A stretch of DNA of 64,000 bases, from assembly GCA_965220225.1 (NCBI GenBank), contig OZ244813.1, positions 1,955,385 through 2,019,384 on the forward strand. The letters run 5' to 3'. The notes beneath the pieces are model-generated. The model was not told the DNA's origin and ran no database searches. It saw only the letters and a list, made by a program, of their open reading frames with translations. Below, one piece after another: positions 3,174-54,562 of the stretch; within the stretch, counting starts at the first letter, position 1, and each line of letters opens with the position of its first letter. A program made the translations under genes and the position numbers. Origin of the DNA: Dehalococcoidia bacterium (lineage in GTDB: Bacteria > Chloroflexota > Dehalococcoidia > Lucifugimonadales > Australimonadaceae).

Positions 3174-3230
3174 CCCGCCTGTGGAATTAGCGGAGTTGGG
3201 CTCTGCTGGGCATCCTCATCGGGTTCGCCT

Positions 3231-3515
3231 TTGGAGAAGTGCCTTGGAGCCTTCATCGGGTACTACTGCATCCTCCCCTCGGGTGAGGAGCCCGCCGCCG
3301 GCTTCCGGTGCCTGAGCCTCCCCTGGGAGCACAGCGACGAGGGCGGCGAGCTGACCATCGCAGCGGGCGAGGACGGCAGGACCATCCACATCTGGATAGA
3401 CCGGGACGCCAGGATCCCCTTCGGCAACTCCCTGCTCTTCGTCGATCTCACCGGCGTGGAGGGGGCGAAGGAGATTACCGACGACTATGCGCAGGGCCGC
3501 GTCACCGACGACTAG
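3231..3515 (+). CDS. Hypothetical small acidic protein
   Basis: 94-aa ORF with protein-like composition. No recognisable motif and no clear RBS. Confidence 0.3.
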   Translation: MEKCLGAFIGYYCILPSGEEPAAGFRCLSLPWEHSDEGGELTIAAGEDGRTIHIWIDRDARIPFGNSLLFVDLTGVEGAKEITDDYAQGRVTDD

Positions 3516-3968
3516 CCGGAGACAACGCTGGGCCGCCGTGTGACGGCGGTTGAAGCCGAGGCATGGAATAGCGATGTAGAAGGAGCGACAGGCGGCCCGA
3601 CGGCTGCCGGTCGTTCCCTACCGAGGACCTAACCCCGGAGCCTCCATGCGCACGGGGCACGGCAGGAGGTGTATCCTGTTTAGTATGAAGGGAGTGGGGC
3701 CATGAAGGGCCACCTGGTCATAGAATACCGAGGCCATCGACCGGGGCTGAACGGGCAGTACGCTGGTGAACATCAACATCGACGATGCAGAGCTGACAAG
3801 GCATCAGGCGAATACGATTCCCCTGCACGGGGACGCCAGAGCAACCATCGAGGCCCTCCTGCCCTTACTCGTGGAAGCAGGGGCCGGAGAGCGGTCGTCG
3901 CCCGTCGAGACGGTGGAGCGCCGCCCGCAGAGCCTCCCTACCGGGTGCACGAATGCGCCTTCGGAGCT

Positions 3969-4859
3969 ATGAATTCCGTACAACCAGAGAGGCAGAACAT
4001 GTGGAAGCAACACTTGATGGCGGTTCTGGTTGTCCTAGCTTCGTTATTCTCACTTCTGGCTTGCTCGGACGACGACGCTTCTGCGACCGTGTCTCCCACA
4101 GCATCTTCCAGTCCCACGGGTTACCCTCCGAGCGACCCCTCAGCAGCAACGCCTATTTCAACACCTCGGGCAACTCCCACTCGTCCGCCTAGTGCAACCC
4201 CGACGGCGACCGCCGCAGCTACCGCAACGCCCACCGCTACTTCGATCGCAGTAGGACAGGACTCGAGCCGCGCCCAGGCTATAGCGCCGCTCAAGGTGGA
4301 TGACCTCCAGGCATTCCTGTCCCAGCTATCTCCTGTAGAACAGGCTTGCCTCAATGACAATGACATAGGCCACCGTGAGCTTATGCAGATGACAGGGCTC
4401 TCTCCCGGCGGTTCTCCTCAGACCACCGCGACCATCATCAACTGCCTGCAAGACGAAACCATCCTGAGGCTGTTCCTGACGTCGCTTGTCGGACTGACTG
4501 AGCCGTTCAGCCCGGTGACCTCCATGTGCATCGAGGAGGGGCTCGTGCTCCTAGACCTTCGTCAGCTGTTGGCGCCTGCCGAAACGAGAGACGCCCCAGT
4601 CAATTCCCTGGCACTGGGGATGGTTGCGCTGAACGTCTCCGTTGTCTGTATGGACGACGACGAGTGGGACATCTATGCTTCAAGGCTTGGTATGCAGCCC
4701 AGGGACAGGGAGGGTGCGGCCTGCCTCTTCGAGGAGTTGGGCGGGCCAGCGAAGGTGGTAGAGGCCATGCAGGAAGCCAGCCTGGGCGAGGTGCCGGAAG
4801 AACTGGCCGAGGCGTTCGAAACATGCATCACGTTACCGCCGCTACGCCCACTTCATTGA
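3969..4859 (+). CDS. Hypothetical lipoprotein with Ser/Thr/Pro-rich linker
   Basis: Internal ATG at 3969 (or 3999) precedes MWKQHLMAVLVVLASLFSLLACSDD (signal plus lipobox). The upstream part of the 385-aa ORF is Arg/Gly-rich and unlikely to be coding. Confidence 0.7.
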   Translation: MNSVQPERQNMWKQHLMAVLVVLASLFSLLACSDDDASATVSPTASSSPTGYPPSDPSAATPISTPRATPTRPPSATPTATAAATATPTATSIAVGQDSSRAQAIAPLKVDDLQAFLSQLSPVEQACLNDNDIGHRELMQMTGLSPGGSPQTTATIINCLQDETILRLFLTSLVGLTEPFSPVTSMCIEEGLVLLDLRQLLAPAETRDAPVNSLALGMVALNVSVVCMDDDEWDIYASRLGMQPRDREGAACLFEELGGPAKVVEAMQEASLGEVPEELAEAFETCITLPPLRPLH

Positions 4860-5087
4860 CGTGGGCCACGCCGGTTCTTCCGTGTAGCCATCTGGAAGCA
4901 GACCACAACGAGGACGACGAGCAAGACCGGTATGACGATGTAAGAGATGATGCCGATAAGTGTGGTTACAACTTCGGACATTCCTAACCTCTGGCAGCCG
5001 CGTGGCTGATCTGCGCTGGAACGTGAACGCCGCTTGCTTCATGTTGCAGACGGTACAGGCGTGGGAGTCGCCAGACCCGTCAAGGTG

Positions 5088-6227
5088 TCACAGGCCAATG
5101 GCATAGAGCCGCCCGTCGCCGCAGGCTGCGTACATCACGTGCGCGTCCACCACCAGACGCCGCACAGGGGCGTAGCAAACGGGGCCGTAGTCGTCCAGCG
5201 TATCTCCTGATGCCGCGTCAAACGCGAAGACGATGCCGTCGGACGACCCTGCGTAGACCACGCCGTCTGAGACGACCGGAGGGGACGACAAATGTGCTCT
5301 GGGGTACCACCAGACCGCAAAGCCCGTCTGCGGGTCCAGCGCAGTAAGGCTTATGGGATAGCGGTCATTGCCTTTGGCATACATCGTCCCACCTGCTACT
5401 ACCACATCCGGCTCCAGACCATGCTTGGTGAACTCCCACAGCCCTTCGCCCGAGGACGGGTCGATGGCTTCGACCAGCACGTCTCCTTCGGAACCCAGCA
5501 CTTCGCCCACCGCATACAACGTGCCGTCCGCCAACGTTATGGTCGTGGGGGTTCCGGTCGTGCCGGACAGCCAACGCTCCCTTCCGGTGGCCGCGTCCAG
5601 AGCGACGACGGCGGCAGCACCTTCCAGCGCGTACACGGTGCCGCCGTCCACGATGGGCGTGTCCCATACCAACGGAAAGCCGTAAGTGCTTTGCCAGATG
5701 ACGTTGCCTGTTTCCACATCGAAGGCGGTGATGGGAGCGGAGTAGCCAGCGGCCACCACGGTCCCGCCAGACACCACCGGTTGAAAGGACACGGTTCCGT
5801 CTGTTGGCACTCGCCACTGCACGGAGCCGTCCGCGCTGTCGATGGCGACCAGGAACGTGCTGCCTTTGAGAGACGACCCCACGTAGACGATGCCGTCGTG
5901 CTCCGTTAGCGGGCTGTGGGTGGCGGGTGATTCTCCGTACTGCCAGAGCTGTTCACCCGTGACCGTGTCAATGGCGTGCACGTAGTGGCCCGCTGACGCG
6001 TACAGCATTCTGCCGCTTACCACCGGCGCATACGGCTCTACGCCCGTGTCGTACTGCCAGATCACTGCAGGGTGCAGCCCATCGGATGCCGTGGGCGTCG
6101 GCATGGGCGTCGCCGTTGCTGTTGGCATAGGCGGCATGGGCGTAGGGCTGGGTGTTGGCGTCGGCTCTGAGCAGGCGGCCAGCGCGAACGCTAGGAACGC
6201 CAGGAGCAGGACACGGGCTATGCGCAT
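5088..6227 (-). CDS. PQQ-like / BamB-like beta-propeller repeat lipoprotein
   Basis: Start at MRIARVLLLAFLAFALAACSEPTPTP (lipobox). Repeated Y(A/V)xxxxGxhxAhDxxTGxxxW units are typical of PQQ-type propeller blades. Confidence 0.8.
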   Translation of the reverse strand: MRIARVLLLAFLAFALAACSEPTPTPSPTPMPPMPTATATPMPTPTASDGLHPAVIWQYDTGVEPYAPVVSGRMLYASAGHYVHAIDTVTGEQLWQYGESPATHSPLTEHDGIVYVGSSLKGSTFLVAIDSADGSVQWRVPTDGTVSFQPVVSGGTVVAAGYSAPITAFDVETGNVIWQSTYGFPLVWDTPIVDGGTVYALEGAAAVVALDAATGRERWLSGTTGTPTTITLADGTLYAVGEVLGSEGDVLVEAIDPSSGEGLWEFTKHGLEPDVVVAGGTMYAKGNDRYPISLTALDPQTGFAVWWYPRAHLSSPPVVSDGVVYAGSSDGIVFAFDAASGDTLDDYGPVCYAPVRRLVVDAHVMYAACGDGRLYAIGL

Positions 6228-6343
6228 CTGGTGCCTCCGGCAACAGCGTACCATGCCGCCGCCGTGCACCCTGCCTTGCGGATGCGGCCCTGCTGGTGTT
6301 AGCGTTCCGCCCTTCATCCGACGTTTCATCCGGGGAGGAAGAC

Positions 6344-6610
6344 GTGTACGGCAGCATCGGCGATGTCGAGTACAGCCAGGAGACGTTGGGGCTTGGCAGC
6401 AGGCTTGCCTTGGAGGATGTCAGGCTGTGTCTGCGGGAGTGCACCACTTTGGACGCTCTCAGGGAATGGCTGTTGACACGGAGGAGCGAGACGAAGATGT
6501 CATGGCTGAGCACCGTCCCCCATGCGCTTGTCCCATCGGTGCTGGAAGTGCGTGACCTCTACCTGGGGCAGTTGCTGGATGCGCTCTCCGCACCGCAGGA
6601 GCAGTGGTAG
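6344..6610 (+). CDS. Hypothetical small protein (GTG start)
   Basis: GGAGGA lies 5 nt upstream of the GTG at 6344. The 88-aa product VYGSIGDVEYSQETLG... has ordinary composition. Divergent from the propeller gene. Confidence 0.35.
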   Translation: MYGSIGDVEYSQETLGLGSRLALEDVRLCLRECTTLDALREWLLTRRSETKMSWLSTVPHALVPSVLEVRDLYLGQLLDALSAPQEQW

Positions 6611-6980
6611 GCGGCTCCGTTGGGATGGGCAGGGCATACCGCACCCGCACGTCGTAAATCATCGTCGTCATCAGCAGGGAGGGGGATGCGAGCAACCGTA
6701 GAATCATCTGCTGTCCCCCTAGTTGCTCCCATCGTTCAACTTGTCCTGCAGGTCGATTCCATGGATGACAGTGTTCCCTATCCCTCATCCAGACAACGTG
6801 GCCGACACGTTCACCAAGTGCCTCCTGTGGGCGGGATTCAGTCCCCTCCGTGCCCAACGAATCGGCACGATAGCATATGGTGTTTGATGGAGCGTCTCTG
6901 CTTGACCGTGTGACCGTTAGGCTGGTACACCACCATCCGTTCTGTCTGGCGCAAGGCCAGTCGATAGAGAGGAGAACGCC

Positions 6981-7190
6981 ATGGAAGTGCAGGTGAACAA
7001 CGGAAAGTTCGTCGTCCTGACAGGGACGGAGAAGGGAGTCGGTGGTTCCGGCCCTGAGCGGGTCTACATCGAGTGGCGCGTGCTCACTGACGACGTGGCC
7101 GCCAGCCTGACACCTGCACAGGCGATGGGACTGGTGTCGGCCATCGTGCAGACGGCTGCGAAGACTACCCGACTGCAGGATGCAGGATGA
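6981..7190 (+). CDS. Hypothetical small protein
   Basis: GAGAGGAG RBS upstream of the ATG. 69 aa with no known motif. Confidence 0.5.
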   Translation: MEVQVNNGKFVVLTGTEKGVGGSGPERVYIEWRVLTDDVAASLTPAQAMGLVSAIVQTAAKTTRLQDAG

Positions 7191-7205
7191 CAGGCTCTGC
7201 CGCCT

Positions 7206-7490
7206 TCACGTCCGGTCGGTGATGCCCTCGCGTTCGCCGTTGCACCAGCGGAGCACCTCCGCCTCTATCTCGGCGGCAACGTCCTTCGGCGTCCGTGGCT
7301 TGGCCAAGCACCACCATGCGAACGGGGCAAGCGGCGGCCAGTTGATGGCTAACTCCCGAAGGCCAGGGTCGGCCTGACGGGACATCAGGCCATAGGTGCA
7401 GGCCATCGACACCATGGTCAGCATGTCACGGAGGTCGCTCACCATCTGGTCGTAGGTCCACAGCACCGTCCGGCCTCCAACGGCCAGCAT
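7206..7490 (-). CDS. Hypothetical protein
   Basis: 94-aa ORF convergent with 6981-7190. Composition is plausible and there is no motif. Confidence 0.35.
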   Translation of the reverse strand: MLAVGGRTVLWTYDQMVSDLRDMLTMVSMACTYGLMSRQADPGLRELAINWPPLAPFAWWCLAKPRTPKDVAAEIEAEVLRWCNGEREGITDRT

Positions 7491-7738
7491 GGGGCTGCGC
7501 CAGCCGCGCCAACCTCGTCGCCCACCCCAGCAAGAGATACGCTACCCACTCAGGAGCGGGTTCAACAGCGGGTAGCCACAGCCAGTCTATAGGGGCGTTC
7601 ATCCACGTACCATCTTTGGGGTTTACCCATTCACGGTTAGCGATAGCCACCAAGAGGTTGAGTGGCCAACCACTAAGGGGCTGCGGCCGCAGCCCCTTAA
7701 ATAGTAAAGGCCTCACACATGGCCGAAGCGACTGCCTC

Positions 7739-8101
7739 CTAGGTCGGGCAGGGTACCAAGCCGGTCTCTCGTCGGAGTGTGTCAGCAAGCACTCGATACT
7801 CATCCGCCTCGTCCAGTCGACCCTCGGCCTCCAAGTCACGAGCGCGGCTTTTGGCGAAGGGTACCGCCAAGGCCTTGCACCGCTCACAGATGGTACCAAC
7901 CCAAGAGCCACGCAGCCGGTCTTCCATGTAGCCATACACGTCTCTCCGGTCATGGTCACAGGTGTCTCCTCCGCAGAAAGCCCTCTCCTTGTCAGCATTG
8001 GGGTCGATCAGGTGCAGTTCTACCACTGTGCATGTCTTCATCTCATGCCTCCTTATCGTCGCTAGTGTCACCATCACGGTGCTATCGTCGTGAGCGTTCA
8101 T
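7739..8101 (-). CDS. Hypothetical Cys-containing protein
   Basis: 120-aa ORF containing CGGDTCDHD and CERC motifs. No family recognised. Confidence 0.5.
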   Translation of the reverse strand: MNAHDDSTVMVTLATIRRHEMKTCTVVELHLIDPNADKERAFCGGDTCDHDRRDVYGYMEDRLRGSWVGTICERCKALAVPFAKSRARDLEAEGRLDEADEYRVLADTLRRETGLVPCPT

Positions 8102-8221
8102 CTGTTCGCTCCTTCTTCCTTAAATGGCAAAGCACCACGCACATGCCTTCAGGCGGGGGAGGCCACCGCGTCTGCCGCGATGGCCTCCCCTGTACTGTCC
8201 CGGCCTGTCCGCCTTCGACCG

Positions 8222-8704
8222 TTAGAGCAACCTCGGCATCTCTGCCTGCTGTTGGCCTGCCGTATCAGCCCCGTTCGATGCCTGTGCTGACCCTTGCCCC
8301 CGCCGAGTCTGACGCCTGGCCGGTGGAGCAGGTCTCGCGTGGGCCGGATACCTGGGCTCGTCTTCCCACCGGGCTCTCGCCCTCTCGGTCACTGCCGGGA
8401 CCTCCTGCGCCAGCCCCGACAGGTCATGGTCGTCGAACGACTCGATGTGCGGGTCTGACTTCGGTTGCTGCACGCCGATCGTGGCCCTGCCTCCCTTGAT
8501 GGACACGACCACCTTCAGCTCCTCCGGTGGAGCAGCCTGCTCTCCGCCGGCGTCGGAACCCTGCGGTCCCTGTGCGGCCTCTCCGTCGGAGTTCTCCTCT
8601 CCGGTGACTGCGGCAGTCGTGTCCTCCGCCACATCGGCGAAGGGGCTGTCGTCGGCGCTCGGGGCATCCGAGCTGGCTGTTGCGGATGCAATCTCGTCAG
8701 GCAT
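8222..8704 (-). CDS. Hypothetical protein with acidic disordered N-terminus
   Basis: 160-aa ORF. N-terminal 60 aa are Asp/Glu/Ser/Ala-rich, followed by a folded-looking core (KVVVSIKGGRATIGVQ). Confidence 0.55.
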   Translation of the reverse strand: MPDEIASATASSDAPSADDSPFADVAEDTTAAVTGEENSDGEAAQGPQGSDAGGEQAAPPEELKVVVSIKGGRATIGVQQPKSDPHIESFDDHDLSGLAQEVPAVTERARARWEDEPRYPAHARPAPPARRQTRRGQGSAQASNGADTAGQQQAEMPRLL

Positions 8705-8753
8705 GTTCTCTCCTTCCTTGTTCTTCTCCGGCTGCGTTCACGTGCGCCGGTGA

Positions 8754-9140
8754 CTATGCCGCCCTCCTCGACGACTCTCTCCTGATCTCGCCGAGGGTCT
8801 GCGGCTCCCAGTAGAGGTCGCGCTCCACGGCGGGGACGTTGCCGAACACGGTCGCCTCCGCCAGCTCGGTGAGGTCGAAGTAGCCCAGCTCTGTCTCGAA
8901 CCCCTCGACGAGGCCGAAGCAGAGCCCGGTCTCGGTCTCCCACTCGGTGATGTACCAGCGCCAGCCGGTGTAGGGACTGAAGAGCTTCACCCTGGCGACG
9001 ACGGCATCGGGGTCGTCCGCGCCGTCAGTGGCGTCCAGGGGCGGGATCGTGGCGGCGAGCTCCTTCGTCATGAGCTTGTGCCTGCGGTAGCGATTGTGGT
9101 TGTCCTGCCAGATCGTTGTGGTTCCCTTGTCGTCAGACAT
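8754..9140 (-). CDS. DUF2958-family protein (common on ICEs and plasmids)
   Basis: VKLFSPYTGWRWYITEWETETGLCFGLVEGFETELGYFDLTELAE...VERDLYWEPQTLGEI matches the DUF2958 core as I recall it. Confidence 0.8.
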   Translation of the reverse strand: MSDDKGTTTIWQDNHNRYRRHKLMTKELAATIPPLDATDGADDPDAVVARVKLFSPYTGWRWYITEWETETGLCFGLVEGFETELGYFDLTELAEATVFGNVPAVERDLYWEPQTLGEIRRESSRRAA

Positions 9141-9183
9141 GACTTCTCCTTCTTCTTGCTTCTCTGGGATGGGTTCTGTGGGC

Positions 9184-9999
9184 CTACCCTTCGGACATTG
9201 CCTCGGTATCAGACCCCGGGATTCGATCCACCGCCTCCGGGGTGGCGTAGGCCGGGGTCACCGTGCCGAGGTCCATGTCCAGGTAGAGGCCCATGAAGGG
9301 GCAGGAGCCCGCCGCCATGCGGCGGACCACCTGTAGCACCAGTGATGCCATCATCTGGTTGATGGTGGGGTCCTGGTCGGTGAGGTCGAGGGCGGCAGCG
9401 CAGTCCACGTCCGGCGGCGTGGTCGACACGGCCGTCAACAGGTCGGGGCGCTGCAGCGTGGGCGCTGGCAGCAGCCGGCAGGTCTCGTCAACGAAGGCGG
9501 GCTCGTCCCAATCCTCCAGGTCGGCCACGTTGCCTATCAGCACCTGCCCCCAGTTGGTGTCGTTGCCCGCGTCGATGAGCCACCGGCCCCGGCCGTTCGG
9601 CAGGCTCTCGGCCATCGCCCTTCGTGCGGCCGCGTTGTCAGCACAGCCGATGATCAGGCAGTCGCCGTAGGTGGGCAGGCCGGGGTAGCGGTGCCCGTAG
9701 GCGTGGGAGCCGGACTCCCGGAACGGGTAGACTGAGTAGCCGATCGGACGCCGGTAGGCCCGAGCGAGCCGGTCCGCCAGAGCCTTGCTCTTGAACTGTC
9801 CCACGTCACCGGGGTGAAAATTCTGGCGCAGCAGGTTGTGGGGCTCGACCCGGTCGTGGTCGACCAGGACGATGGTGGCCTCCCGCCCCTGGAAGAGGCG
9901 GCAGAGGCCCTCGGCGACGAAGCCGCCGGTCCCGCCGCAGCCGACCACGGTGATCCACGGTCGTTCGAGCAGGAATGCGTTGTCCAGGTAGTAGGGCAT
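9184..9999 (-). CDS. ThiF/E1-like adenylyltransferase, PRTRC-type
   Basis: Rossmann motif VVGCGGTGGFVAEGL, LVDHDRVEPHNLLRQ, and GCADN. Gene order follows a JAB protein, as in PRTRC cassettes. Confidence 0.85.
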   Translation of the reverse strand: MPYYLDNAFLLERPWITVVGCGGTGGFVAEGLCRLFQGREATIVLVDHDRVEPHNLLRQNFHPGDVGQFKSKALADRLARAYRRPIGYSVYPFRESGSHAYGHRYPGLPTYGDCLIIGCADNAAARRAMAESLPNGRGRWLIDAGNDTNWGQVLIGNVADLEDWDEPAFVDETCRLLPAPTLQRPDLLTAVSTTPPDVDCAAALDLTDQDPTINQMMASLVLQVVRRMAAGSCPFMGLYLDMDLGTVTPAYATPEAVDRIPGSDTEAMSEG

Positions 10000-10005
10000 G
10001 CTCGG

Positions 10006-10677
10006 TTACCTCCCTGTTGTTCGAATGATGTCCAGCAGAGATTCCGGCTCCTCGCCGCTCAACCGGACGTCCGGGACCGGGCCGTCGAAGACCTGCGACC
10101 ACTCCACCGGAGCGAAGTGGCCGTAGACGCCGACCCGGAGACGGAGCTCGGGTCGGGCGGAGTGAAGGCGTCCCGCGACGCCGTAGATGCGGAAGCCCTG
10201 CTCGTCCCGGTCGTCGGTGGCCGAGAAGAAGGCGGAGAGGCTTCCGTGCGAGTGGAACTCGGCTACCACCCCGCTGGGGGGCTGGTAGATGAGGGACACC
10301 CGCGATCCGGCCTGCGGAGGGACCACGGGCCGGTAGGCGTGACCGTCCCAGCGGACGGCGAAGAACCGCTCCGTGTCCGGTGCGTCCTGGAACCAGCGCA
10401 GGCCCGCCTCGAGGATGCGGGACGGGATGCGGCCGTGGGGCAGCATCACCTTCTCGCTCACGGGTGCGAGCCCGCGAACGACGCAGGGGGCGATGAGCAC
10501 CCGCGCTGTCAGGTGGGCGCTCGCGGACTGGACGTACACGCCGCCCAAGCCCAGCACGTAGTCGTAGCCGATCCCCTGGACTCCGGCGAGCCCGGCGGGG
10601 TGGTTGACGAGGTGGCCCACCGGACTCGGCGGGGCGTCAGCGGTAGCCGCGTCTCCCTTCGGAGACCGCCATGACAT
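10006..10677 (-). CDS. JAB/MPN-domain metalloprotease, PRTRC protein A-like
   Basis: JAMM motif EFHSHGSLSAFFSATDDRDE. ATG at 10677 overlaps the upstream gene end by 41 nt; a later start is possible. Confidence 0.8.
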   Translation of the reverse strand: MSWRSPKGDAATADAPPSPVGHLVNHPAGLAGVQGIGYDYVLGLGGVYVQSASAHLTARVLIAPCVVRGLAPVSEKVMLPHGRIPSRILEAGLRWFQDAPDTERFFAVRWDGHAYRPVVPPQAGSRVSLIYQPPSGVVAEFHSHGSLSAFFSATDDRDEQGFRIYGVAGRLHSARPELRLRVGVYGHFAPVEWSQVFDGPVPDVRLSGEEPESLLDIIRTTGR

Positions 10678-11341
10678 GGGCCACCGTACACTGGGGAACC
10701 AGGTCCTCCATCGGGTACTCGGTTGTTCCATCGAGCTCCTCCCATAGGGTTTGCAGGTTGTCGGGGTGCTTCTTCGAGCGCTCATGGCTGTCGCCGGTGA
10801 GCGAGAAGAAGGACTGGAAGAACGATTCCGGTATCAGCCCGACCTCGTCGGGGTACCGGTGGCTGCCCGGACACGTCCTTCCGTCGCGGAAAACGTTGAA
10901 GGCCGGCATCCGGTAGAGCTGCTGCTCGGGATCGGACGGCCGCTCCGTTGCGGCGTAGACCCAGGGGGCGCGGCCCGGCGAGCAGACGAAGAGCAGTCCC
11001 GGCATCGGGATCTTCAGCCGGGCGGGAGGCTTGAACGCCTCCCGTTGCAGGGCGACCGGCCACACCTGCGGCGGCCGCCAGAGGCCGACCACCTGCCCGG
11101 TCTCGCCCTGGTTCCACCAGAGGGCGTCCGCCGGCAGCAGCCCGGAAGAGAACCCCAGGTGCTGGGTGAGCGCGCTCGCGATCCCGTCCGCCGAGACGGT
11201 CCTGACCCAGGCCGAGCCGGTCTCGAAGCAGCGCAGAAGCAGTGTCTCCTCGTAGACCTCCAGCTGCATCTTCAGGTCGTCTCTGGGCGCATCGTTCACG
11301 CCCGGCAGGGACCACCCGGTGACATCGGTGTCAACACTCAT
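10637..11341 (-). CDS. PRTRC protein B-like (position and size); possible E2-like component
   Basis: Start at MSVDTDVTGW (ATG 11341). Conserved-looking PMPGLLFVCSPG and RMPAFNVF. Assignment rests mainly on position between the F-position gene and the JAB gene. Confidence 0.55.
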   Translation of the reverse strand: MSVDTDVTGWSLPGVNDAPRDDLKMQLEVYEETLLLRCFETGSAWVRTVSADGIASALTQHLGFSSGLLPADALWWNQGETGQVVGLWRPPQVWPVALQREAFKPPARLKIPMPGLLFVCSPGRAPWVYAATERPSDPEQQLYRMPAFNVFRDGRTCPGSHRYPDEVGLIPESFFQSFFSLTGDSHERSKKHPDNLQTLWEELDGTTEYPMEDLVPQCTVAHVMAVSEGRRGYR

Positions 11342-12171
11342 GTTCCTTTGCCTCCTTTTCCTTCTTGAGGGAGCCGTCCCAGGACGAACTCCAGCATCGC
11401 GGTGAAGCGGGCGGGGAGGTCCTGCTCCAGCCAGTCGGTCAACCTGCCCACCGCGTCCATGAGGGCCTCGGCCTGCCACCACACCCCGGTGGCCTCTGCG
11501 ATCAGGTCGTCGTCCCAGGGGTCGGAGAAGCCGTTGTACTCCCCGTCGTCATAGCTGGCGTCGAGGAAGAAGTTGCCGGTCTCGGCCCAGATCCAGTTGC
11601 CTGCCTGCGCCGCCCCCTCGAACGGCGTTCCCTGCAACGCCGCGGTGAGGACGTCGAGGGGTATGCCGTCGCTGGGGATGCGTTCGAGGGTCTGTCGCGG
11701 GATGTGCTCGGCTGCGGCCTCCAGCCACGCCACCCGTATCCCGTCCGGCACCACGTAGCAGGCCTCGGGAGGTCTGGCCAGCAGCGCCAGGGACGAGAGC
11801 CCCTCGCGGTAGCGGTCCCACATCTCGTGGACGGCGTCGTAGCCGAAGCCGAACAGGTCGAAGGGGATGCCTCTGCGCAGCCAGGTGAAGGGAGGATCGT
11901 CCCCCTCGTCCCAGTAGAGGTCGAGGTATGCCCCGTAGAGGGGGAAGTGCCGCTCCTGGAAGAGCCGGGCGAAGCGCTCCACCCTCTCACGGACGTCGGG
12001 GGCCGCCAGCAACGCCTCTCCCTCATCGGGGAAGAGACGGTGCACCAGCCCCGCGAACCAGGCGTAGTCGTCGGCGTAGCCGATCAGCGTCACCAGCTCC
12101 CGCAGCGACGGCGGACGCCGCAGGAGCAGTGTCGCGAGCCCGCTCAGCCGAGCTGGGGCAGCAGCTTCCAT
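11338..12171 (-). CDS. Hypothetical protein in the PRTRC protein F position
   Basis: 277-aa ORF, translationally coupled (4-nt overlap) to the next gene. No motif recognised. Confidence 0.5.
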   Translation of the reverse strand: MEAAAPARLSGLATLLLRRPPSLRELVTLIGYADDYAWFAGLVHRLFPDEGEALLAAPDVRERVERFARLFQERHFPLYGAYLDLYWDEGDDPPFTWLRRGIPFDLFGFGYDAVHEMWDRYREGLSSLALLARPPEACYVVPDGIRVAWLEAAAEHIPRQTLERIPSDGIPLDVLTAALQGTPFEGAAQAGNWIWAETGNFFLDASYDDGEYNGFSDPWDDDLIAEATGVWWQAEALMDAVGRLTDWLEQDLPARFTAMLEFVLGRLPQEGKGGKGT

Positions 12172-12374
12172 CGCAGGGCTGAGGCGAGGCGTCCCGTGGT
12201 GGATGCGTAGTCCTGCGCCTGCGCGCAGGCCAGCTCCACCTCGGACTGTCGTGCGGCCGCGGCGTCCAGATCGAGGGAGCCGTCGGGCCGTGTGAGCTCC
12301 GCCGTGAGCTCGATGATCTTCAGGTCCGCAGGCGGCACCGCCGCCAGCAGACCCGCAAGCGTCCGGTTGTCCAT
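12144..12374 (-). CDS. Small hypothetical protein inside the PRTRC-like cassette
   Basis: ATG at 12374 (MDNRTLAGLL...) lies 2 nt after the stop of the Ubl gene. 76 aa. Confidence 0.45.
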   Translation of the reverse strand: MDNRTLAGLLAAVPPADLKIIELTAELTRPDGSLDLDAAAARQSEVELACAQAQDYASTTGRLASALRWKLLPQLG

Positions 12375-12375
12375 C

Positions 12376-12588
12376 TCACGCCTCCGCCGGGTGAACGGCA
12401 GAAGCGCCCTTGGTGCCGACCCGCCGCTGGAACTCGTAGACCGTGTCATCGCCGCGCTTGGTCTCCTTCACGGAGGCGTTGGCGATCTCCCCGTAGAAGT
12501 CGGCCAATGTCGCTTTCACCTGCTCGACGGTCATCTGGGGGTCCGGGTCCGGGAACTCGCGGTCGTCGTAGACGAATATGCGTGCCAT
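12376..12588 (-). CDS. Small ubiquitin-like (beta-grasp) protein, PRTRC protein C-like
   Basis: 70 aa: MARIFVYDDREFPDPDPQMTVEQVKATLADFYGEIANASVKETKRGDDTVYEFQRRVGTKG plus a 9-aa tail. Size, pattern and neighbourhood fit PRTRC protein C. Confidence 0.7.
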   Translation of the reverse strand: MARIFVYDDREFPDPDPQMTVEQVKATLADFYGEIANASVKETKRGDDTVYEFQRRVGTKGASAVHPAEA

Positions 12589-12670: not shown

Positions 12671-14968
12671 TCATGCGGCCTTGCGCCCCGCGCCGACCGG
12701 CTCTACATCGCGCTCCCGCTCCATGCCGAGCGCCCACTCGAACATGGAGAGGCTCGCGGGCTGGGGTTTGCGGCTCCGGCTCTTCGGCCTCGCCGGCCCC
12801 TCGGCCATGAACTCCGCCCAGGAGAACAGCGTCTGCCCTGACTCCGGGGACCCGTCGATGTGGCCGTTGTCGAGCACCGGCTCGATGCCGGAGGCCGTGC
12901 CGTCTACCGCAACCGTCTCCGGCTCGGTCTCCACGGCCTGCCAGCCGTCGTCGACCAGGTACTCTTCGGCCTCGGTCTCGGCGTCCCGCGCTGCCGCGAA
13001 GACCGCCTCCACCGTCTCCGCCTCATCCTCGTCGCCGTTCACGATCTTCCGCGCCAGCGCGAGCATGAGGTCGTCTCCGTCGTCGCCGTAGGCGGCCAGG
13101 CCGTCCTCCGGCAGTTCGCCCTCCACCGCCAGCGAAGACTGGAGTTTCTTCGCCACCAGCTTCAGGGCATCGGCCTGCAGGCTGTTCCTGTAGGCCATGA
13201 ACACCACCCGCACCGGCCGCGTCTGGCCGATGCGCCACGAGCGGCGGGACGCCTGCCGCATCGTGTAGACCGAGTAGTCCGTCTCGTACCAGCAGATGGT
13301 CGGGAAATCGATCAGGTCGAGCCCGGTCTGCACCAGCCTGGGATGGCAGATGAGGACGTCGAGTCCCTTCTCCACCTGCTCGGCGACCCACGCCTCGCGC
13401 CGGTCGGGCGCGACGGCATCGGCCTTCATCACCGCCACCCGGAACCCGTGCCGGGTGAGCATGCTCTCCATCCGGCCGGTGATGTCCCGCGTGCCGGTGT
13501 GCGTCGCGTACACCAGCACCCGGCGTCCCTCCAGGCGCTCCGCGGCCACGAGGTCGACGAGCGCCTGCTCCTTCGGGTAGGTCCGCTCCTCGGAGAGCGG
13601 AGGCACCCCCACGATGGGGAAGCCCGTCGCGGGGTCGAAGACGGTCTCGCCCCGTGTGCAGCCGTCCGGGTAGGCGAGCAGTGTCTGCAGGTACGTGGCC
13701 AGCAGCCGCTTGGAGCCGGTGGCCAGTGCCGCACCCAGCGCACTCTTCAGCGCCCCGTAGAGCATGTCGTAGGCCGAGCGCTGCGATAGGCCCGTGTGGT
13801 CCTGTTCGGAGTCCATGCGGGAGAGCAGGACCCGCTCCTCGTAGGGAGGCAGCCCGGACGCCACGTCCGAGAGCCGCAGGAAGATGGAGTTCCCGATGAG
13901 GTGGAAGAGTGCCGAGGGAGCGAGGCCGGGACGCTCACGCACCACCCTGCGGTAGCGGCGCCTCCGGCTGTTGCGCCCGTCCTCGACGGAGGAGTCGTCG
14001 TTCTTGTACACCGTCTCCTCGGTGAAGCCGTAGCGCTGGATCCACCGTCCCTCCTCGTTGTGCCGGAACTCGGTGCGGATCTCCGGGGAGAACCGGTAGA
14101 GGAGGTGGAAGAGGGTGCTGGCATAGCCGCCCATGAGCGTGCCCGAGAGGGTGAGCGAGCGGCCGCACGACTCCGCGAGCACGCCGGCGGCGATGCCCTG
14201 GGCGGAGCCGCGCGCCTTGAACTCATGCACCTCGTCGCCGATGAAGAGGTCGAAGAACCCCCGCATCCGGTGCTTGACGTAGTCTGCCAGGGGATAGCGG
14301 CGGGGGCCGGTGTTGTCGGCCTGCCACAACGGGGAGTTGCAGACGTCGCAGACGTGCCGCTTGCGGTTGAGGTCCGCCGTGGACAGAGGCACGCCCTCCC
14401 TGTCGAGCACCTGCGCGGCGCAGACGGGGCAGCAGGGGATGCGGAAGGGAGCGCCCGTCTCCTCGTCCCGCACGAGCCTGCCACCCGCCACGGCCCACCG
14501 CTCATTGACGGCGGGCTGCCAACGGTAGGCGAGCTTGGCCCGCTCGCGGGACATGACCGCGAAGAGGGGAGCGGCGCCGGGGAAGAGGCGGAGGCGCTCG
14601 AGGTCGGTGATGGAGGTGACGATGGCGGCGCGGGCGCCGGGGATGGTCTCCTCCACCTCGCGCTTCCACTTCCGCACGAGGTGCGGCGGGCAGAGCACCA
14701 GGACGCGCCTGAAGCCCGCCGCGTGGGCGGCGCTCGTTGCGATGAACGTCTTTCCGGTTCCCATCTCGCCGACGACGGTCGTGCCCTGGTGGGCCTGCAG
14801 CGAGAGGGCCGCGCCGCGTATGGCGTCGGCCTGTGCGCCGAGCGGCCTGCGCAGGAGCGCGGGGAGTGGAACGGCCTGCTCGGACGGCCGGTAGAGGGGC
14901 GGGTACGACTCCACCACCCGCTGGGCGATGGAGTCCCTGAACGTGTCGATGAAGGTCCCGAGGTTCAT
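12671..14968 (-). CDS. SNF2/DEAD-like superfamily-2 helicase with inserted zinc ribbon
   Basis: Walker A VVGEMGTGKTF and DEAH-like GDEVHEFK. C-terminal helicase motifs (YATHTGTRD, QASRRSWRIGQ). CCPVC...CDVC insertion. Start at MNLGTFIDTF (ATG 14968). Confidence 0.85.
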   Translation of the reverse strand: MNLGTFIDTFRDSIAQRVVESYPPLYRPSEQAVPLPALLRRPLGAQADAIRGAALSLQAHQGTTVVGEMGTGKTFIATSAAHAAGFRRVLVLCPPHLVRKWKREVEETIPGARAAIVTSITDLERLRLFPGAAPLFAVMSRERAKLAYRWQPAVNERWAVAGGRLVRDEETGAPFRIPCCPVCAAQVLDREGVPLSTADLNRKRHVCDVCNSPLWQADNTGPRRYPLADYVKHRMRGFFDLFIGDEVHEFKARGSAQGIAAGVLAESCGRSLTLSGTLMGGYASTLFHLLYRFSPEIRTEFRHNEEGRWIQRYGFTEETVYKNDDSSVEDGRNSRRRRYRRVVRERPGLAPSALFHLIGNSIFLRLSDVASGLPPYEERVLLSRMDSEQDHTGLSQRSAYDMLYGALKSALGAALATGSKRLLATYLQTLLAYPDGCTRGETVFDPATGFPIVGVPPLSEERTYPKEQALVDLVAAERLEGRRVLVYATHTGTRDITGRMESMLTRHGFRVAVMKADAVAPDRREAWVAEQVEKGLDVLICHPRLVQTGLDLIDFPTICWYETDYSVYTMRQASRRSWRIGQTRPVRVVFMAYRNSLQADALKLVAKKLQSSLAVEGELPEDGLAAYGDDGDDLMLALARKIVNGDEDEAETVEAVFAAARDAETEAEEYLVDDGWQAVETEPETVAVDGTASGIEPVLDNGHIDGSPESGQTLFSWAEFMAEGPARPKSRSRKPQPASLSMFEWALGMERERDVEPVGAGRKAA

Positions 14969-15297
14969 GGTCTGCTCCTTTCGTGGGGAGAGCCACGACC
15001 TCGGGGCCCGCGTCCCTGCTCCAACCTCCTCGCGGGGGCTTGAAGACAGGGCACACCCCTCCCGCCCGTACGGGAGGGGGTTAGGGAGTGCCGGGCGCAG
15101 GCGCCCTTTGGAGTTACCGTGGAGACACTCCCCGTTGTTCGCGTGCGCTGTCCCAGGCACGCACCGGTCGAGATGGGCGGGGCTCGCCCGACCGGTGGTG
15201 GGAGAGTCCCGTCAGGCGGCTCCGCAGGAGCCGTCCAAGAAGAAGACGGCCCGCTCCCGGTGGGAAGCGGACCCCCATTGTTGAGGCCTGTCTGCCG

Positions 15298-16734: not shown

Positions 16735-17778
16735 CTATGCGGCGATGTCGGTGATCTCGCCGTCGTCGAGGCCGAGGGCGACCACGGTGGTGCGCAGCTG
16801 CTCCCGCCATGTCTCGGTCTCCTCGGTCTCTTCGACCAGCACCATCTCCTTGGTGGTGCGGCCCTTGACGAGGATGCGGCGGCCCTCCGCCTCAAGGCAG
16901 AGGTTGTCGAGGAAGCCCGCCGCGACCAGCATCGCCATGTGCCCGCGGCGCAGCGGCATCAGCGGGCGGGTGCGGGTGTCGCCCCTCGGCCAGAGCGCGT
17001 CGTTGATCGCGGCGCTGGCCCACAGCCCGGAGCGCCGTGCCTCCGATGCGGCCGCTATCGGGTCGACGGTACGCGTGGTGAAGAGCACGTCCCCGTCAGG
17101 CAGGGGCGGGATCGTGAATTCCGTGTAGGCGCGGGAGGAGAGTTCGTCCAGCGAACCCGCCGCCCACTCCCGCACGCGCATCTCGGCGTGCACGTCGGTG
17201 TGCGGCTCCGTCTGGTGGCGGCCGATCAGCACCACCTGGTCGAACGCCTCCCGCTCCGGGTCGGGGAATGCCCAGCACCGGAGTTGCCGGTAGTGGGAGG
17301 AGAGGTAGCGGGCCGAGACCTCCAGCCGCTGGCGGGGCACGACGAAGACGAGCACTCCGTTGTCCGCCAGGTAGCGGGAGGCGTGCATCAGGAAGGCGTG
17401 CTCCGAGCGCTTCTCTTCGTTGTCATAGTCGTAAGGGGGATTGACATACAGCAGGCCGAACGCCCGGTTGGCGATGGAGGTCTGGAAGAGGTCGCTGGCC
17501 AGCACCCGGTGCAGGCGCTCCCCGGCCTCGGCGGCGCGGACGCGGTGGAGCTCCACGCCGTAGGTCTCGATGGGCATCGTGTTCGGCTGCGTGAGCCGTT
17601 CGGCGAGCTGCGCAACCGCCTCGCCCGCGCCGCAGCACGGGTCGAGGATGCGGAGCGTCTCCCCGCCGCGGCGGCGGGAGGCGTAGGTCATGGGAGCGTG
17701 GATCAGTCCCGCGATCAGGTCGACGACGCGGGGCGGCGTCGGGTAGAAGCCGCCCTTGGCCTGTCCTGCAAGTCTCAT
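16735..17778 (-). CDS. N6-adenine DNA methyltransferase (orphan, no cognate nuclease seen)
   Basis: SAM motif ILDPCCGAGEA and catalytic motif YVNPPYDYD. Confidence 0.8.
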   Translation of the reverse strand: MRLAGQAKGGFYPTPPRVVDLIAGLIHAPMTYASRRRGGETLRILDPCCGAGEAVAQLAERLTQPNTMPIETYGVELHRVRAAEAGERLHRVLASDLFQTSIANRAFGLLYVNPPYDYDNEEKRSEHAFLMHASRYLADNGVLVFVVPRQRLEVSARYLSSHYRQLRCWAFPDPEREAFDQVVLIGRHQTEPHTDVHAEMRVREWAAGSLDELSSRAYTEFTIPPLPDGDVLFTTRTVDPIAAASEARRSGLWASAAINDALWPRGDTRTRPLMPLRRGHMAMLVAAGFLDNLCLEAEGRRILVKGRTTKEMVLVEETEETETWREQLRTTVVALGLDDGEITDIAA

Positions 17779-36719: not shown

Positions 36720-37028
36720 GTGATGGAGACCGGCGTGCGGCGTTTCGCCGATGAGCACGGTGACGAGGTCAGGCTCACCGACGAGCGGCTCCGGCACATC
36801 CTGCGAAGGCACCCCGAGATGGCCTTCCAGTTGCACCGGTTCGCCGAGACCCTGGCCAGCCCCGACGCGGTGATCCCATCGAGGACCGGCGCGGGGGTCC
36901 ATCTCTACTACCGTCTCTACCCGGACCAACAGGGCAGGAACCGCTACCTCTGCCTGGTGGTGAAGAGAGGAACGGACGACTCCTTCGTCCTCACCGGCTA
37001 CCTGAGTCGAGGCATCAGAGGAGGGTGA
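36720..37028 (+). CDS. Putative toxin, DUF4258 / BECR-fold RNase-like
   Basis: LTDERLRHILRRHPEM... followed by a beta-rich core ending VLTGY. Partnered with a DUF2283-like gene, which is a known toxin-antitoxin pairing. Confidence 0.45.
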   Translation: MMETGVRRFADEHGDEVRLTDERLRHILRRHPEMAFQLHRFAETLASPDAVIPSRTGAGVHLYYRLYPDQQGRNRYLCLVVKRGTDDSFVLTGYLSRGIRGG

Positions 37029-37447
37029 TCATGACGAACAGAAAGGTGTTCATCTCGTTCGACCATGAGGGAGACATGCTTGAGGTGCTGTGGGGGCATC
37101 GCGAGGGGTACTTCACTCCCACTGACGACGAGCGCATCCTCAAGCGCCTCGACGACGACGGCGAGGTGATGGGGTTCCTCATCCACGAGATGAGCACACT
37201 CAGGGAGTCCAACTCCGTCGAGTTCGAGCTGGTGTCCGAGGTGCCCACTGATGATGTCGCCAACGTCACTGTCCGAGAAGCGGCTAACCGGCTGGGCGTG
37301 TCAGAACGCAGGATCCGCAAACTGGTTCGGGAGGGCAGGGTGCGCGGAGCGACCAAAAGCGGAGCCGATTGGCTGATTCCAACACCGGTCGAGTTGATTC
37401 CGGGAAAGCGGGGTCCCGTGGGGGTTGCGGGGCGGATCGACTCGTAA
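37025..37447 (+). CDS. DUF2283-like domain fused to a MerR/excisionase-type HTH (putative antitoxin)
   Basis: ISFDHEGDMLEVLWG...DDDGEVMGFLI matches the DUF2283 pattern. C-terminal VTVREAANRLGVSERRIRKLVREGRV is an HTH. Start overlaps the upstream stop (GTGA). Confidence 0.6.
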   Translation: MIMTNRKVFISFDHEGDMLEVLWGHREGYFTPTDDERILKRLDDDGEVMGFLIHEMSTLRESNSVEFELVSEVPTDDVANVTVREAANRLGVSERRIRKLVREGRVRGATKSGADWLIPTPVELIPGKRGPVGVAGRIDS

Positions 37448-37800: not shown

Positions 37801-37828
37801 TTGGGGGGGTTGTAGCACGCCACGAATA

Positions 37829-38714
37829 GTTGTGGATAGCGGGCAGGCGTCATTCAGTTACAATCGACAGCCCGGATCACTACGACCACCTAAGTTGTGG
37901 ATAGCGGGCAGGCGTCATTCAGTTACACTTTCGCGGTTGGCGAGGTGCCGGACCGTGGGGTTGTGGACAGCGGGTAGGCGTCATTCAGTTACACTATACG
38001 ACGCCTCCCCCGGAGACGGAGCAAGTTGTGGACAGCGGGTAGGCGTCATTCAGTTACACTCAGACGAGCCATCGAGACCGCCAGGAGCAAGTTGTGGACA
38101 GCGGGTAGGCGTCATTCAGTTACACTGCAGGCCTTTCGTACGATGGCCGCTCTTCCGTTGTGGACAGCGGGTAGGCGTCATTCAGTTACACTGTCGTGCA
38201 CAGGTTGGCTCTTCCAGTGCGGTTGTGGACAGCGGGTAGGCGTCATTCAGTTACACTACTGCGGTGAGGCCTGATATTCGGGTCTAGTTGTGGACAGCGG
38301 GTAGGCGTCATTCAGTTACACTAGGGCCGCACATGCACTGATAGCGAGACTGTTGTGGACAGCGGGTAGGCGTCATTCAGTTACACTTAGGCCGATCTGC
38401 GATCGGCTGAAACGGACGTTGTGGACAGCGGGTAGGCGTCATTCAGTTACACTTCGCCCCCGGCGGTCTCGATGGCTCGTCTGGTTGTGGACAGCGGGTA
38501 GGCGTCATTCAGTTACACTAGGGCCGTACATGTACTGACAGTGAGACGGTTGTGGACAGCGGGTAGGCGTCATTCAGTTACACTGACTATGCGGTCTATT
38601 CGTCCACCACCCTGTTGTGGACAGCGGGTAGGCGTCATTCAGTTACACTTACTCCTTCTTCTTCTCGCCCTCTTTGCGGTTGTGGACAGCGGGTAGGCGT
38701 CATTCAGTTACACT
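37829..38714. CRISPR. CRISPR array: 14 x 36-bp repeats and 13 spacers of 29-30 bp; no cas genes in the window
   Basis: Consensus GTTGTGGACAGCGGGTAGGCGTCATTCAGTTACACT. Repeat starts: 37829, 37894, 37960, 38025, 38091, 38157, 38222, 38287, 38352, 38418, 38484, 38549, 38614, 38679. The first two repeats carry 3 and 2 substitutions; the other 12 are identical. Confidence 0.97.
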
Positions 38715-46090: not shown

Positions 46091-46208
46091 CGTGTTCAGG
46101 TGCAGACACGAGGGTGGGATCGGCGAGCGAATCCCGTATCCTAGATAGCATCCGGATCGTTCCAGGGAGTTGCCCACCCCGAGCCGTCCGGGCAGGGAGC
46201 GCCATTCG

Positions 46209-47285: not shown

Positions 47286-47384
47286 CGCGCCGGTACACCA
47301 GGCCTGCTCCAATGGAAGGATCGTACCATCGGATGCGGAGGCGACAGCGCTTCGTTCAGTAGAGATCAAGGGGGAAGGTGAGGC

Positions 47385-49868: not shown

Positions 49869-49876
49869 GGAGGCTC

Positions 49877-50914: not shown

Positions 50915-50941
50915 GCCTTCTTTCCGCTCTCCTGAGCGCCG

Positions 50942-52975: not shown

Positions 52976-53163
52976 CAGCCTCGGTCTCCGAGCATGCCTC
53001 ACACCTTCGGGTCACTTATGCCCGTAACCAAGTTAGTATGACTCCCGAAATTGGGGGGTGTCAACGCAGAAAAGACGCCAGCTTCTGTCGCCACCCGGGA
53101 GCGCGTATCAGTGCGGGACGGGTCGGTTGGCTGCGTGGCCCGGCATACGGAGCCAGCGGCTCC

Positions 53164-54405: not shown

Positions 54406-54562
54406 CGCCGTCTCTCCTGATGCGGATCCGCGTTGCCAATCCCTGGGACTCGTCCACGGCAACTATACCACCCGGATATACGGTGGACGCACGCTCCCGG
54501 CTGCGGTTGGGCGAGCGGTGCAATAAACTCCTCCAACGAGATCTTCCACAAGGAGACGTTCG

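Follow-up and report, generated by a model that had tools for sequence, protein, structure and literature searches.

A predicted ubiquitin-like conjugation module of the 6d/PRTRC class as exchangeable cargo of an integrative conjugative element in Dehalococcoidia

What could genes for a pathway of ubiquitin-like protein conjugation be doing on a bacterial conjugative element? The question is raised by a 64,000-nt stretch of the genome of a Dehalococcoidia bacterium (contig OZ244813.1, positions 1,955,385 to 2,019,384; below, the window, in whose coordinates all positions are given), where six co-directional minus-strand genes at 9184-12588 encode, in order of transcription, a ubiquitin-like protein (Ubl), a 76-aa protein, a 277-aa protein, an E2-like enzyme, a JAB/JAMM metallopeptidase (JAB), and a ThiF-type E1 enzyme. 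A preliminary description of this DNA, made from the letters alone, had pointed out these six open reading frames (ORFs), all of which are confirmed here, and had suggested that they form a ParB-Related ThiF-Related Cassette (PRTRC) without ParB, carried by an integrative conjugative element (ICE) and expressed with its establishment genes. The explanation that we find best, and hold with a little more confidence than doubt, is that of an eight-gene ICE cargo encoding a minimal pathway of Ubl conjugation and deconjugation that is used in conflict.

Enzymes of the cassette and the predicted pathway

The Ubl matches the Prok_Ub family (PF14454, E = 2e-15 in Pfam) and passes the curated cut-off of the PRTRC_C model (TIGR03738, 48.0 bits against 45.95, E = 1e-12). 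The segment RRVGTKG, ending at Gly61, is invariant in 75 Ubl orthologues and is followed by a variable tail of 3-15 residues. The homologue from Pseudanabaena stops exactly at ...GPKG, and the PRTRC_C protein of Caballeronia reads ...GAKG followed by nine residues. Since GTKG is invariant, the tails are unconserved, and the cyanobacterial homologue ends at KG, the comparison points to Gly61 as the C-terminus of the mature protein and to a tail that would need processing.

The E1 enzyme is a stand-alone protein with a single ThiF/MoeB-type domain and without a rhodanese domain. It matches ThiF (PF00899, E = 5e-13 in Pfam), and its best PRTRC match, to PRTRC_ThiF (TIGR03736, 101.3 bits, E = 5e-29), lies below the cut-off of 144.75. 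Comparison of four distant lineages leaves G20xGGxG25, D47, D49, N55, R58, Q59, K70, D121, R126, D143, N146, and C200 invariant in the family; of these, GxGGxG, D47, D49, N55, R58, Q59, K70, D121 (which sits in a CxDN motif), and R126 correspond to the ATP- and Mg-binding positions of MoeB/ThiF-type enzymes. C200 is the sole family-wide cysteine and falls in the region corresponding to the crossover loop. When compared with the Protein Data Bank (PDB), the family profile matched UBA5 (3e-10) and also UBA6, ThiF, TcdA, Uba1, Cap2, BubCD, and MoeB.

The E2-like enzyme belongs to Prok-E2_D (PF14460, E = 4e-15, 56 bits against a cut-off of 25); PRTRC_B is its best and only match among the PRTRC models (TIGR03737, 57.2 bits, E = 1.5e-15, below the cut-off of 131.45). 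The preliminary description had singled out the cysteine in the PGLLFVCSPG motif (C120) as the conserved one. This residue is invariant in the Dehalococcoidia clade only, whereas C157 and H192 are conserved family-wide: P146, N149, G154, C157, G159, and H192 are invariant across Dehalococcoidia, Chlorohelix, Pseudanabaena, and Caballeronia. We predict that C157, with N149 and H192, forms the catalytic site. The stretch P-x-x-N-x4-G-R-x-C mirrors the HPN...G-x-I-C of UBC enzymes, with P-x-x-N in place of H-P-N, and the best local hhalign alignment with human UBE2D2, which is weak (E = 0.054), puts N149 and C157 on N77 and C85. An hhalign comparison with the BilB sequence printed in the Bil preprint gave no match.

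The metallopeptidase matches Prok-JAB (PF14464, E = 5e-06 in Pfam) and, as its best and only PRTRC match, PRTRC_A (TIGR03735, 52.9 bits, E = 3e-14, below the cut-off of 101.8). Its JAMM motif, E103...H171-S-H-x7-S-x2-D, is kept in the homologues from Chlorohelix, Pseudanabaena, and Caballeronia. It has an N-terminal extension of about 100 residues, and a strictly conserved Arg/Trp pair, as expected of the JAB-N domain of 6d operons, is not confidently placeable in a six-sequence alignment. The motifs quoted in the preliminary description, HSHGSLSAFFSATDDRDE in JAB, VVGCGGTGG in E1, and PGLLFVCSPG in E2, are each present in the translations. In one related locus (L028) an interruption of the JAB reading frame lies just ahead of the HSH motif, with intact neighbouring genes, which reflects either a decaying copy or a sequencing error. 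Judged by its motifs, the enzyme set of the window is complete, with intact catalytic residues, and apparently working.

As for the class of the operon, the PRTRC assignment stands in part. In a search with the TIGRFAM PRTRC models, which the preliminary description had recommended, the Ubl, E2, JAB, and E1 were matched by the models for C, B, A, and ThiF, respectively, and nothing by those for F and E; only C exceeds its cut-off, with A, B, and ThiF being best matches below theirs. Neither observation that the preliminary description had named as contrary to its assignment was made: these four proteins are nearest to PRTRC models, and E1 keeps all adenylation residues. No module ORF matches protein E (TIGR03741). 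The absence of ParB holds as well: no ParB domain was seen among the ICE ORFs scanned with Pfam, and tblastn with the PRTRC ParB of plasmid pNK84 (TIGR03734 family) found nothing in the window or in 80 related loci with their 10-kb flanks (a scan of one genome per species gave 212 relatives, of which these loci are the best 80). These matches support a Ubl/E2/JAB/E1 cassette of the PRTRC/6d lineage with the positional layout C-(small)-helical-B-A-ThiF, and by them the locus is to be regarded as a diverged member of the '6d'/PRTRC operon class and not as a strict PRTRC member.

A pathway can be proposed from these features. JAB would first trim the variable tail of the 70-aa Ubl precursor, exposing Gly61. 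The ThiF-type E1 would then adenylate Gly61 with ATP and probably hold the Ubl as a Cys200 thioester, from which it would move on to the Prok-E2_D enzyme, where Cys157 would receive it in a UBC-like site that also includes Asn149 and His192. E2 would hand the Ubl to lysines of target proteins, and the same JAB could reverse the mark. The 277-aa helical and 76-aa proteins, as obligate partners, would most likely be scaffold or target-selection factors. We consider this chemistry, from the trimming of the precursor to the reversal by JAB, likely.

A pathway without protein tagging, in which E1 and the beta-grasp protein would act as a ThiS/MoaD-like carrier system in sulfur transfer or in acyl-adenylate chemistry on a small molecule or peptide, is very improbable. 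It would agree with the single MoeB/ThiF-type domain of E1, whose secondary matches are ThiF, MoeB, TcdA, and MccB, but the operon also contains an E2 with invariant Cys and His and a JAMM peptidase, the Ubl matches Prok_Ub and not ThiS or MoaD, a rhodanese domain is missing from E1, and the ICE ORFs scanned included neither a sulfurtransferase nor a biosynthetic partner.

The coding evidence for the cassette is consistent. Shine-Dalgarno sequences and tight or overlapping junctions link the six genes, GC content at third codon positions is 0.80-0.89 in their reading frames, and comparison with related loci gives substitution rates decreasing from position 3 through position 1 to position 2 for every gene tested, the 76-aa gene included. 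All six genes are under purifying selection. A scan for sigma-70 promoters found zero sites. Lysine depletion of E1, JAB, and the helical proteins was considered as a signature of self-protection and dismissed, the whole high-GC ICE being lysine-poor.

Relatives of the cassette and its accessory proteins

The 80 loci all come from metagenome-assembled genomes of Dehalococcoidia, Chloroflexota, or SAR202, save one short contig binned as Gammaproteobacteria. Each of the six cassette genes is present in 74-80 of them, and the order Ubl, 76-aa, 277-aa, E2, JAB, E1, DUF2958, 160-aa is kept in about 75, with the gaps mostly explained by contig ends. E2 alone has more than 1000 homologues at E<=0.001, of which the top 120 clusters all show at least 78% identity. 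Another E2 copy, 97% identical, is recorded on a contig just as long (2,938,702 bp) as that of the window's own E2, and two cassette copies occur in several complete Dehalococcoidia genomes (e.g., OZ244715, OZ242009, OZ244064); elements of this family thus accumulate within genomes.

More distant relatives reside on plasmids of cyanobacteria, Chlorohelix, Deinococcus, Pseudomonas, Ralstonia, and Burkholderiales. E2 matched 38 plasmids, 21 of which are typed as conjugative, and a search for the module in 50,697 phage genomes returned zero matches, with no PHROG families matched either. For instance, the operon of Pseudanabaena plasmid pPg_05, preceded by a gene for the single-stranded DNA-binding protein SSB, reads Ubl(69)-83aa-254aa-E2-JAB-ThiF, the same six-gene layout as in the window. 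The canonical PRTRC on plasmid pNK84 of Caballeronia sp. NK8 reads ParB-E-C-F-B-A-ThiF and has an SNF2-related gene 2 kb upstream. An orthologous link between the cassette-adjacent SNF2 genes of Dehalococcoidia, Caballeronia, and Chlorohelix was considered and rejected, as they have only generic helicase motifs or nothing in common.

The preliminary description had set the host element apart from the proteobacterial plasmids on which PRTRC was defined. The host range is no surprise, however: Iyer, Burroughs, and Aravind, who in 2006 named this operon type '6d', already recorded it from beta- and delta-proteobacteria, Bacillus, Anabaena, and Bacteroides (PMC1779556), and PRTRC protein B is annotated on Deinococcus plasmids. 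What the distribution shows is a large branch of class 6D, found in Chloroflexota and cyanobacteria and equipped with accessory proteins of its own.

Three of these accessory proteins, of 76, 277, and 160 aa, match nothing in Pfam, NCBIfam, PADLOC, or PHROG. The 277-aa protein has a confident all-alpha model when built from a deep alignment (pLDDT 92), which was used in place of a model from a shallow alignment of 52 close homologues (pLDDT 52, unusable). No structural neighbour of the model was found in PDB and BFVD, and these proteins may merit definition as a new family and fold. It comprises 500 cluster representatives at E<=1e-3, among them the proteins encoded at this position in the operons of cyanobacteria and Chlorohelix (hhalign probability 97%), and two distant members directly precede a Prok-E2_D gene, with Prok-JAB and/or ThiF genes further downstream. 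By these neighbourhoods, a member of the family is an obligate component of the Prok-E2_D operons of this lineage. Conservation is strongest mainly at Pro, Phe, Gly, and Trp positions, besides a few polar ones (H115, R146, D204), and neither the 277-aa nor the 76-aa partner shows enzyme-like invariant residues. We read the 277-aa protein as a probable scaffold or selector and not as an enzyme; it is a candidate specificity, scaffold, or E3-like factor.

The 76-aa gene is present in 74 of the 80 loci at 70-99% identity, with substitutions of 0.156, 0.115, and 0.317 at the three codon positions. The cyanobacterial operon has a small gene at the same position, yet hhalign showed no relation of the 76-aa family to the Pseudanabaena 83-aa protein, PRTRC_E, or PRTRC_F. 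The possibility that the 277-aa and/or 76-aa proteins are a diverged or split PRTRC_F was tested and rejected in NCBIfam, Pfam, and profile-profile comparisons: neither matches TIGR03742/PF14456 at E<=10, none of 96 family members does so at E<=0.1, and the hhalign probability for the 277-aa and PRTRC_F profiles is 0.2%, while the Caballeronia F protein, taken as a positive control, scored 176 bits with the PRTRC_F model. Similarly, the 160-aa or 76-aa protein as PRTRC_E was rejected by hhalign against Caballeronia E (not significant; control 92.6 bits).

Boundaries of the module, its cargo slot, and its possible role

On both sides the cassette is flanked as the preliminary description had it, by the SNF2 helicase gene and by DUF2958 (Table 1). 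Because the loci found through E2 cannot show whether the module is optional, metagenome contigs were searched with the neighbouring SNF2 protein. About 21 loci found in this way have at least 4 kb downstream of SNF2; the module is present in only three, all with DUF2958 and the 160-aa gene. DUF2958 occurs in 76 of the 80 cassette loci and in none of the cassette-less ones found through SNF2, and the 160-aa gene in 78 of the 80 and, among the SNF2-found loci, only where the cassette is present.

A GC-rich stem-loop directly follows the SNF2 stop (centroid fold of -25.8 kcal/mol, with a z-score of only -1.4 and no U-tract) and could act as a terminator. A second one follows the 160-aa gene; its stem resembles that of the first, and it is kept at 87% identity in two cassette-bearing loci (L093 and L112). 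Because DUF2958 and the 160-aa gene co-occur with the cassette and hairpins bound both ends, the functional unit is eight genes, 8222-12588.

In cassette-less loci, the nucleotide sequence resembles that of the window only as far as the SNF2 stop or the upstream hairpin, or just past the latter, and the SNF2 gene itself occurs in related elements both with and without the module. What follows SNF2 differs among these sisters. Locus L103 carries Cas9 (HNH_4, RuvC_III, Cas9_a), Cas1, and Cas2 with an array of about 24 repeats right after SNF2 (2988-9123), L114 a PLD-SNF2 helicase with an Eco57I-type methylase, and L113 an Eco57I-type protein. The slot of L107, whose SNF2 is 59% identical, has no Ubl cassette and encodes a 654-aa ParB_N/HTH_ParB protein (5919-7883), and the other cassette-less loci have an apparent element end after SNF2. 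The ParB protein after SNF2 in L107 is a curious observation in its own right, since canonical PRTRC is defined by ParB. The module thus behaves as exchangeable optional cargo and not as ICE backbone, in a slot that elsewhere holds defence genes.

This behaviour and the company in the slot favour a function in conflict, although the role is much less certain than the chemistry. Our best guess is that the module is conflict cargo of conjugative elements and not a transfer function. Because it shares a swap slot at the element edge with the CRISPR-Cas9 and restriction genes of sister elements, the Ubl would most likely be attached, during conflict, either to host proteins or to those of a competing phage or mobile element. 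Restriction to plasmids and ICEs, absence from phages and from PADLOC, and the co-orientation with SSB, methyltransferase, and SNF2 also leave room for competition between mobile elements.

The same surroundings bear on the role proposed in the preliminary description, in which the module, expressed early from the incoming element, would tag or de-tag recipient proteins such as defence factors for survival of the ICE. In support of it, the module lies on the same strand as, and downstream of, the genes for SSB, RadC, Rad52, primase, an orphan DUF6094 methyltransferase, and the SNF2-like helicase; SSBs and orphan methyltransferases are typical of plasmid leading regions (PMC11541004). Confinement to plasmids and ICEs with absence from phages, the SNF2-related gene near the canonical PRTRC of pNK84, and the lack of a match to any known defence model of PADLOC agree with it as well. 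On the other hand, closely related backbones occur with and without the module, its slot is taken by defence systems in other elements, the leading region is no more than putative, the SNF2 genes of different lineages share only generic helicase motifs, and the leading-region study is silent on ThiF and ubiquitin (PMC11541004). Of the argument that expression with establishment genes implies counter-defence, the co-orientation with SSB, methyltransferase, and SNF2 stands, while the conclusion is weakened by the position of the module as optional cargo past a hairpin, in a slot with CRISPR-Cas9 or type IIG restriction-modification genes in sisters. We regard an establishment or counter-defence role as rather doubtful.

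A third possibility is that the Ubl reversibly marks proteins of the element itself (ParB-like, helicase, relaxase, or replication proteins) in partition, excision, or copy number control, or that the operon is an addiction module. Such self-regulation or maintenance could account for the definition of canonical PRTRC together with a ParB homologue and for the ParB_N/HTH_ParB protein in the same slot of L107; paired writer and eraser activities suit regulation, and addiction or protection roles were proposed speculatively for 6d operons by Iyer et al. in 2006 (PMC1779556). With ParB missing both here and from the 80 related loci, closely related elements that dispense with the module, and no toxin-like component recognised, we find this possibility improbable, more so than counter-defence.

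Several points weigh against the conflict pathway that we prefer. Assignment of Cys200 as the E1 thioester site comes from its invariance and position only, and the E2 fold from the Pfam match and the weak motif alignment with UBE2D2; a PDB sequence search for a relative of E2 returned nothing meaningful. In PADLOC only residues 11-82 of E1 match (the Cap2 'E1-E2' models), and the Ubl, 76-aa, 277-aa, E2, and JAB proteins match none. In the literature searched we found no demonstrated biochemical step for this operon class and no link between PRTRC and ubiquitin. The slot argument is based on few sister loci and cannot separate defence from counter-defence, and the co-direction of the module with SSB, RadC, the orphan methyltransferase, and SNF2, with no U-tract terminator between, fits establishment too.

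A bolder version can be offered as a speculation, to which we give no more weight than to counter-defence: the module could be the first Ubl conjugation system dedicated to conjugative elements, in which the 277-aa and 76-aa proteins would act as an E3-like selector against recipient defences or rivals and so aid entry of the ICE or its exclusion contests.

The host element and comparison with known systems

The carrier is an ICE of roughly 30 kb, so called because transfer genes are found together with a serine recombinase, followed by chromosomal metabolic genes. It appears as a high-GC island from about 8 kb to 36 kb of the window (GC content 0.66-0.73 against 0.60-0.65 outside) and consists of a plus-strand transfer arm and a minus-strand arm that ends in the cassette (Table 1). 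The VirB4/Replic_Relax-type transfer system claimed in the preliminary description is borne out by the VirB4, coupling protein, TrbL/VirB6, pilin of the type IV secretion system (T4SS), and relaxase genes. Outer-membrane parts are not recognisable in the transfer apparatus, which would fit a monoderm host. The serine recombinase at the right edge is likely the ICE integrase; no flanking direct repeats were seen.

Table 1. Features of the cassette, its surroundings, and the host element
Feature	Position	Strand	Remarks
Ubl, 70 aa	12376-12588	-	Prok_Ub PF14454, TIGR03738
76-aa acidic protein	12144-12374	-	ATG one base past Ubl stop; GGAGG upstream
277-aa all-alpha acidic protein	11338-12171	-	28-nt overlap with 76-aa gene
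E2-like enzyme, 234 aa	10637-11341	-	ATGA overlap with 277-aa gene; AAGGAGG upstream
JAB/JAMM metallopeptidase	10006-10677	-	ORF opens at 10785; likely start ATG 10677 or GTG near 10620
ThiF-type E1, 271 aa	9184-9999	-	6-nt gap after JAB gene
DUF2958 protein, 128 aa	8754-9140	-	PF11171 at 1e-07
160-aa acidic, partly low-complexity protein	8222-8704	-	no family match
GC-rich stem-loop	12628-12671	-	directly after SNF2 stop; inverted repeat I1; upstream module edge
GC-rich stem-loop	8156-8190	-	after 160-aa gene; inverted repeat I2, 15-nt arms, 93% complementary; downstream module edge
SF2/SNF2-like helicase	12671-15160	-	ResIII and Helicase_C; backbone gene directly upstream of module
Minus-strand arm	24.4-8.2 kb	-	DnaG-type primase, Rad52, SSB, RadC, DUF6094 methyltransferase, zinc-ribbon proteins, SF2/SNF2-like helicase, then cassette
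Transfer arm	24.8-35.6 kb	+	TrbL/VirB6-like protein, T4SS pilin, VirB4-type ATPase, coupling protein, Replic_Relax relaxase (Pfam)
Large serine recombinase, 579 aa	39460-41199		right island edge; Resolvase, Recombinase, and Zn_ribbon_recom domains

Several further features of the window deserve mention. The DUF6094-family methyltransferase (16735-17778), whose best PADLOC match is 'mad2' (3.6e-15), is kept in 61 of the 80 loci along with a 229-aa protein without an assigned family; no restriction-enzyme family to pair with it was matched among the ICE ORFs scanned. A CRISPR-like array at 37822-38714, with 14 copies of a 36-nt repeat (GTTGTGGACAGCGGGTAGGCGTCATTCAGTTACACT) at a period of 65-66, separates the relaxase arm from the serine recombinase gene and thus probably sits inside the element; no cas genes were seen among the larger window ORFs scanned with Pfam, and no copy of the repeat in any related locus fetched. 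An overlapping pair at 36720-37447, encoding a PBECR2 (Barnase/EndoU/RelE-like) nuclease-domain protein and an HTH_17/AbiEi-like DNA-binding protein at the ICE edge, is a possible toxin-antitoxin pair. Finally, the chromosomal flank at 46170-54462 contains sterol-flavoured genes unusual for a Dehalococcoidia genome, namely, a methyltransferase with CMAS and Sterol_MT_C domains (49877-50914), a Rieske/KshA_C oxygenase, an MMPL protein with a sterol-sensing-domain match, a P450-GPP34 fusion, and a Rieske/LigXa_C protein.

The cassette is not a new kind of system, and the host range of its class was already known. What is added here is the pinning down of the likely catalytic residues, including the corrected E2 cysteine; the redrawing of the unit as eight genes with sharp boundaries; its description as exchangeable cargo that is absent from phages and whose slot can also hold CRISPR-Cas or restriction systems; and a separate family of accessory proteins, confidently modelled, for which no structural relative was found. 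Five classes of bacterial E1/E2/JAB operons were defined bioinformatically in 2006 (PMC1779556), and classes 6B, 6C, and 6E have been characterised biochemically, whereas for 6D/PRTRC the literature searched held only annotation-level mentions, some of them mistaken, and no functional study. The module thereby offers a handle for deciding whether 6D is a system of immunity, counter-immunity, or plasmid-plasmid competition.

Compared with PRTRC proper (TIGR03734-03742, pNK84), the window shares the order Ubl (C)-helical-E2 (B)-JAB (A)-ThiF, a Ubl ending in G-x-K-G plus a tail, and residence on a conjugative or mobilizable element with an SF2/SNF2-type helicase gene nearby. It differs in lacking ParB and proteins E and F, in A, B, and ThiF scoring far under the curated cut-offs, in a helical protein of a different family without annotation, in an extra 76-aa gene between the Ubl and the helical protein, and in DUF2958 and the 160-aa protein travelling with the cassette.

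Features that the 6d operons have in common with the window are the conserved terminal Gly of the Ubl, the N-terminal extension of JAB, and an E1 that stands alone and lacks a rhodanese domain. In the 6d E2, as described in 2006, a Cys is conserved and a His downstream of it absolutely so, while the HPN His is missing (PMC1779556); in the window, C157 and H192 correspond to these two residues, and an HPN His is missing too. At the position of the 6d alpha-hel2 protein the window has an all-alpha protein as well, but PF14456 is unmatched and the conserved residues are mostly non-polar. The cyanobacterial 6d operons (such as those of Nostoc PCC 7120 and Pseudanabaena pPg_05) share the six-gene layout, a small gene included, and the Pseudanabaena 254-aa protein is homologous to the 277-aa protein. 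In contrast to them, the host here belongs to Chloroflexota (Dehalococcoidia), the carrier is an ICE and not a plasmid, and the Ubl has a tail to process, where the cyanobacterial Ubl ends at Gly.

Among the studied systems, class 6C corresponds to type II Bil, 6E to Bub, and 6B to type II CBASS (with the E1-E2 fusion Cap2); conjugation of proteins has been demonstrated for each of the three, and a function in anti-phage immunity for Bil and CBASS. Class 6A carries an anti-phage NCBIfam model name, and the 6A-MBL model cap2_3 scores 43.8 bits here, against a cut-off of 320. The window differs from Bil and CBASS in its single-domain E1, in place of the multidomain BilD or the fusion Cap2; from Bil in an E2 of family D, not C or BilB; from Bub in its predicted catalytic cysteines, in place of Ser/Tyr oxyester chemistry; from CBASS in having no CapH/CapP-type regulator; and from all three in being restricted to plasmids and ICEs. 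The division of labour among Ubl or substrate, E1, E2, and peptidase is nevertheless common to it and to Bil, Bub, and type II CBASS.

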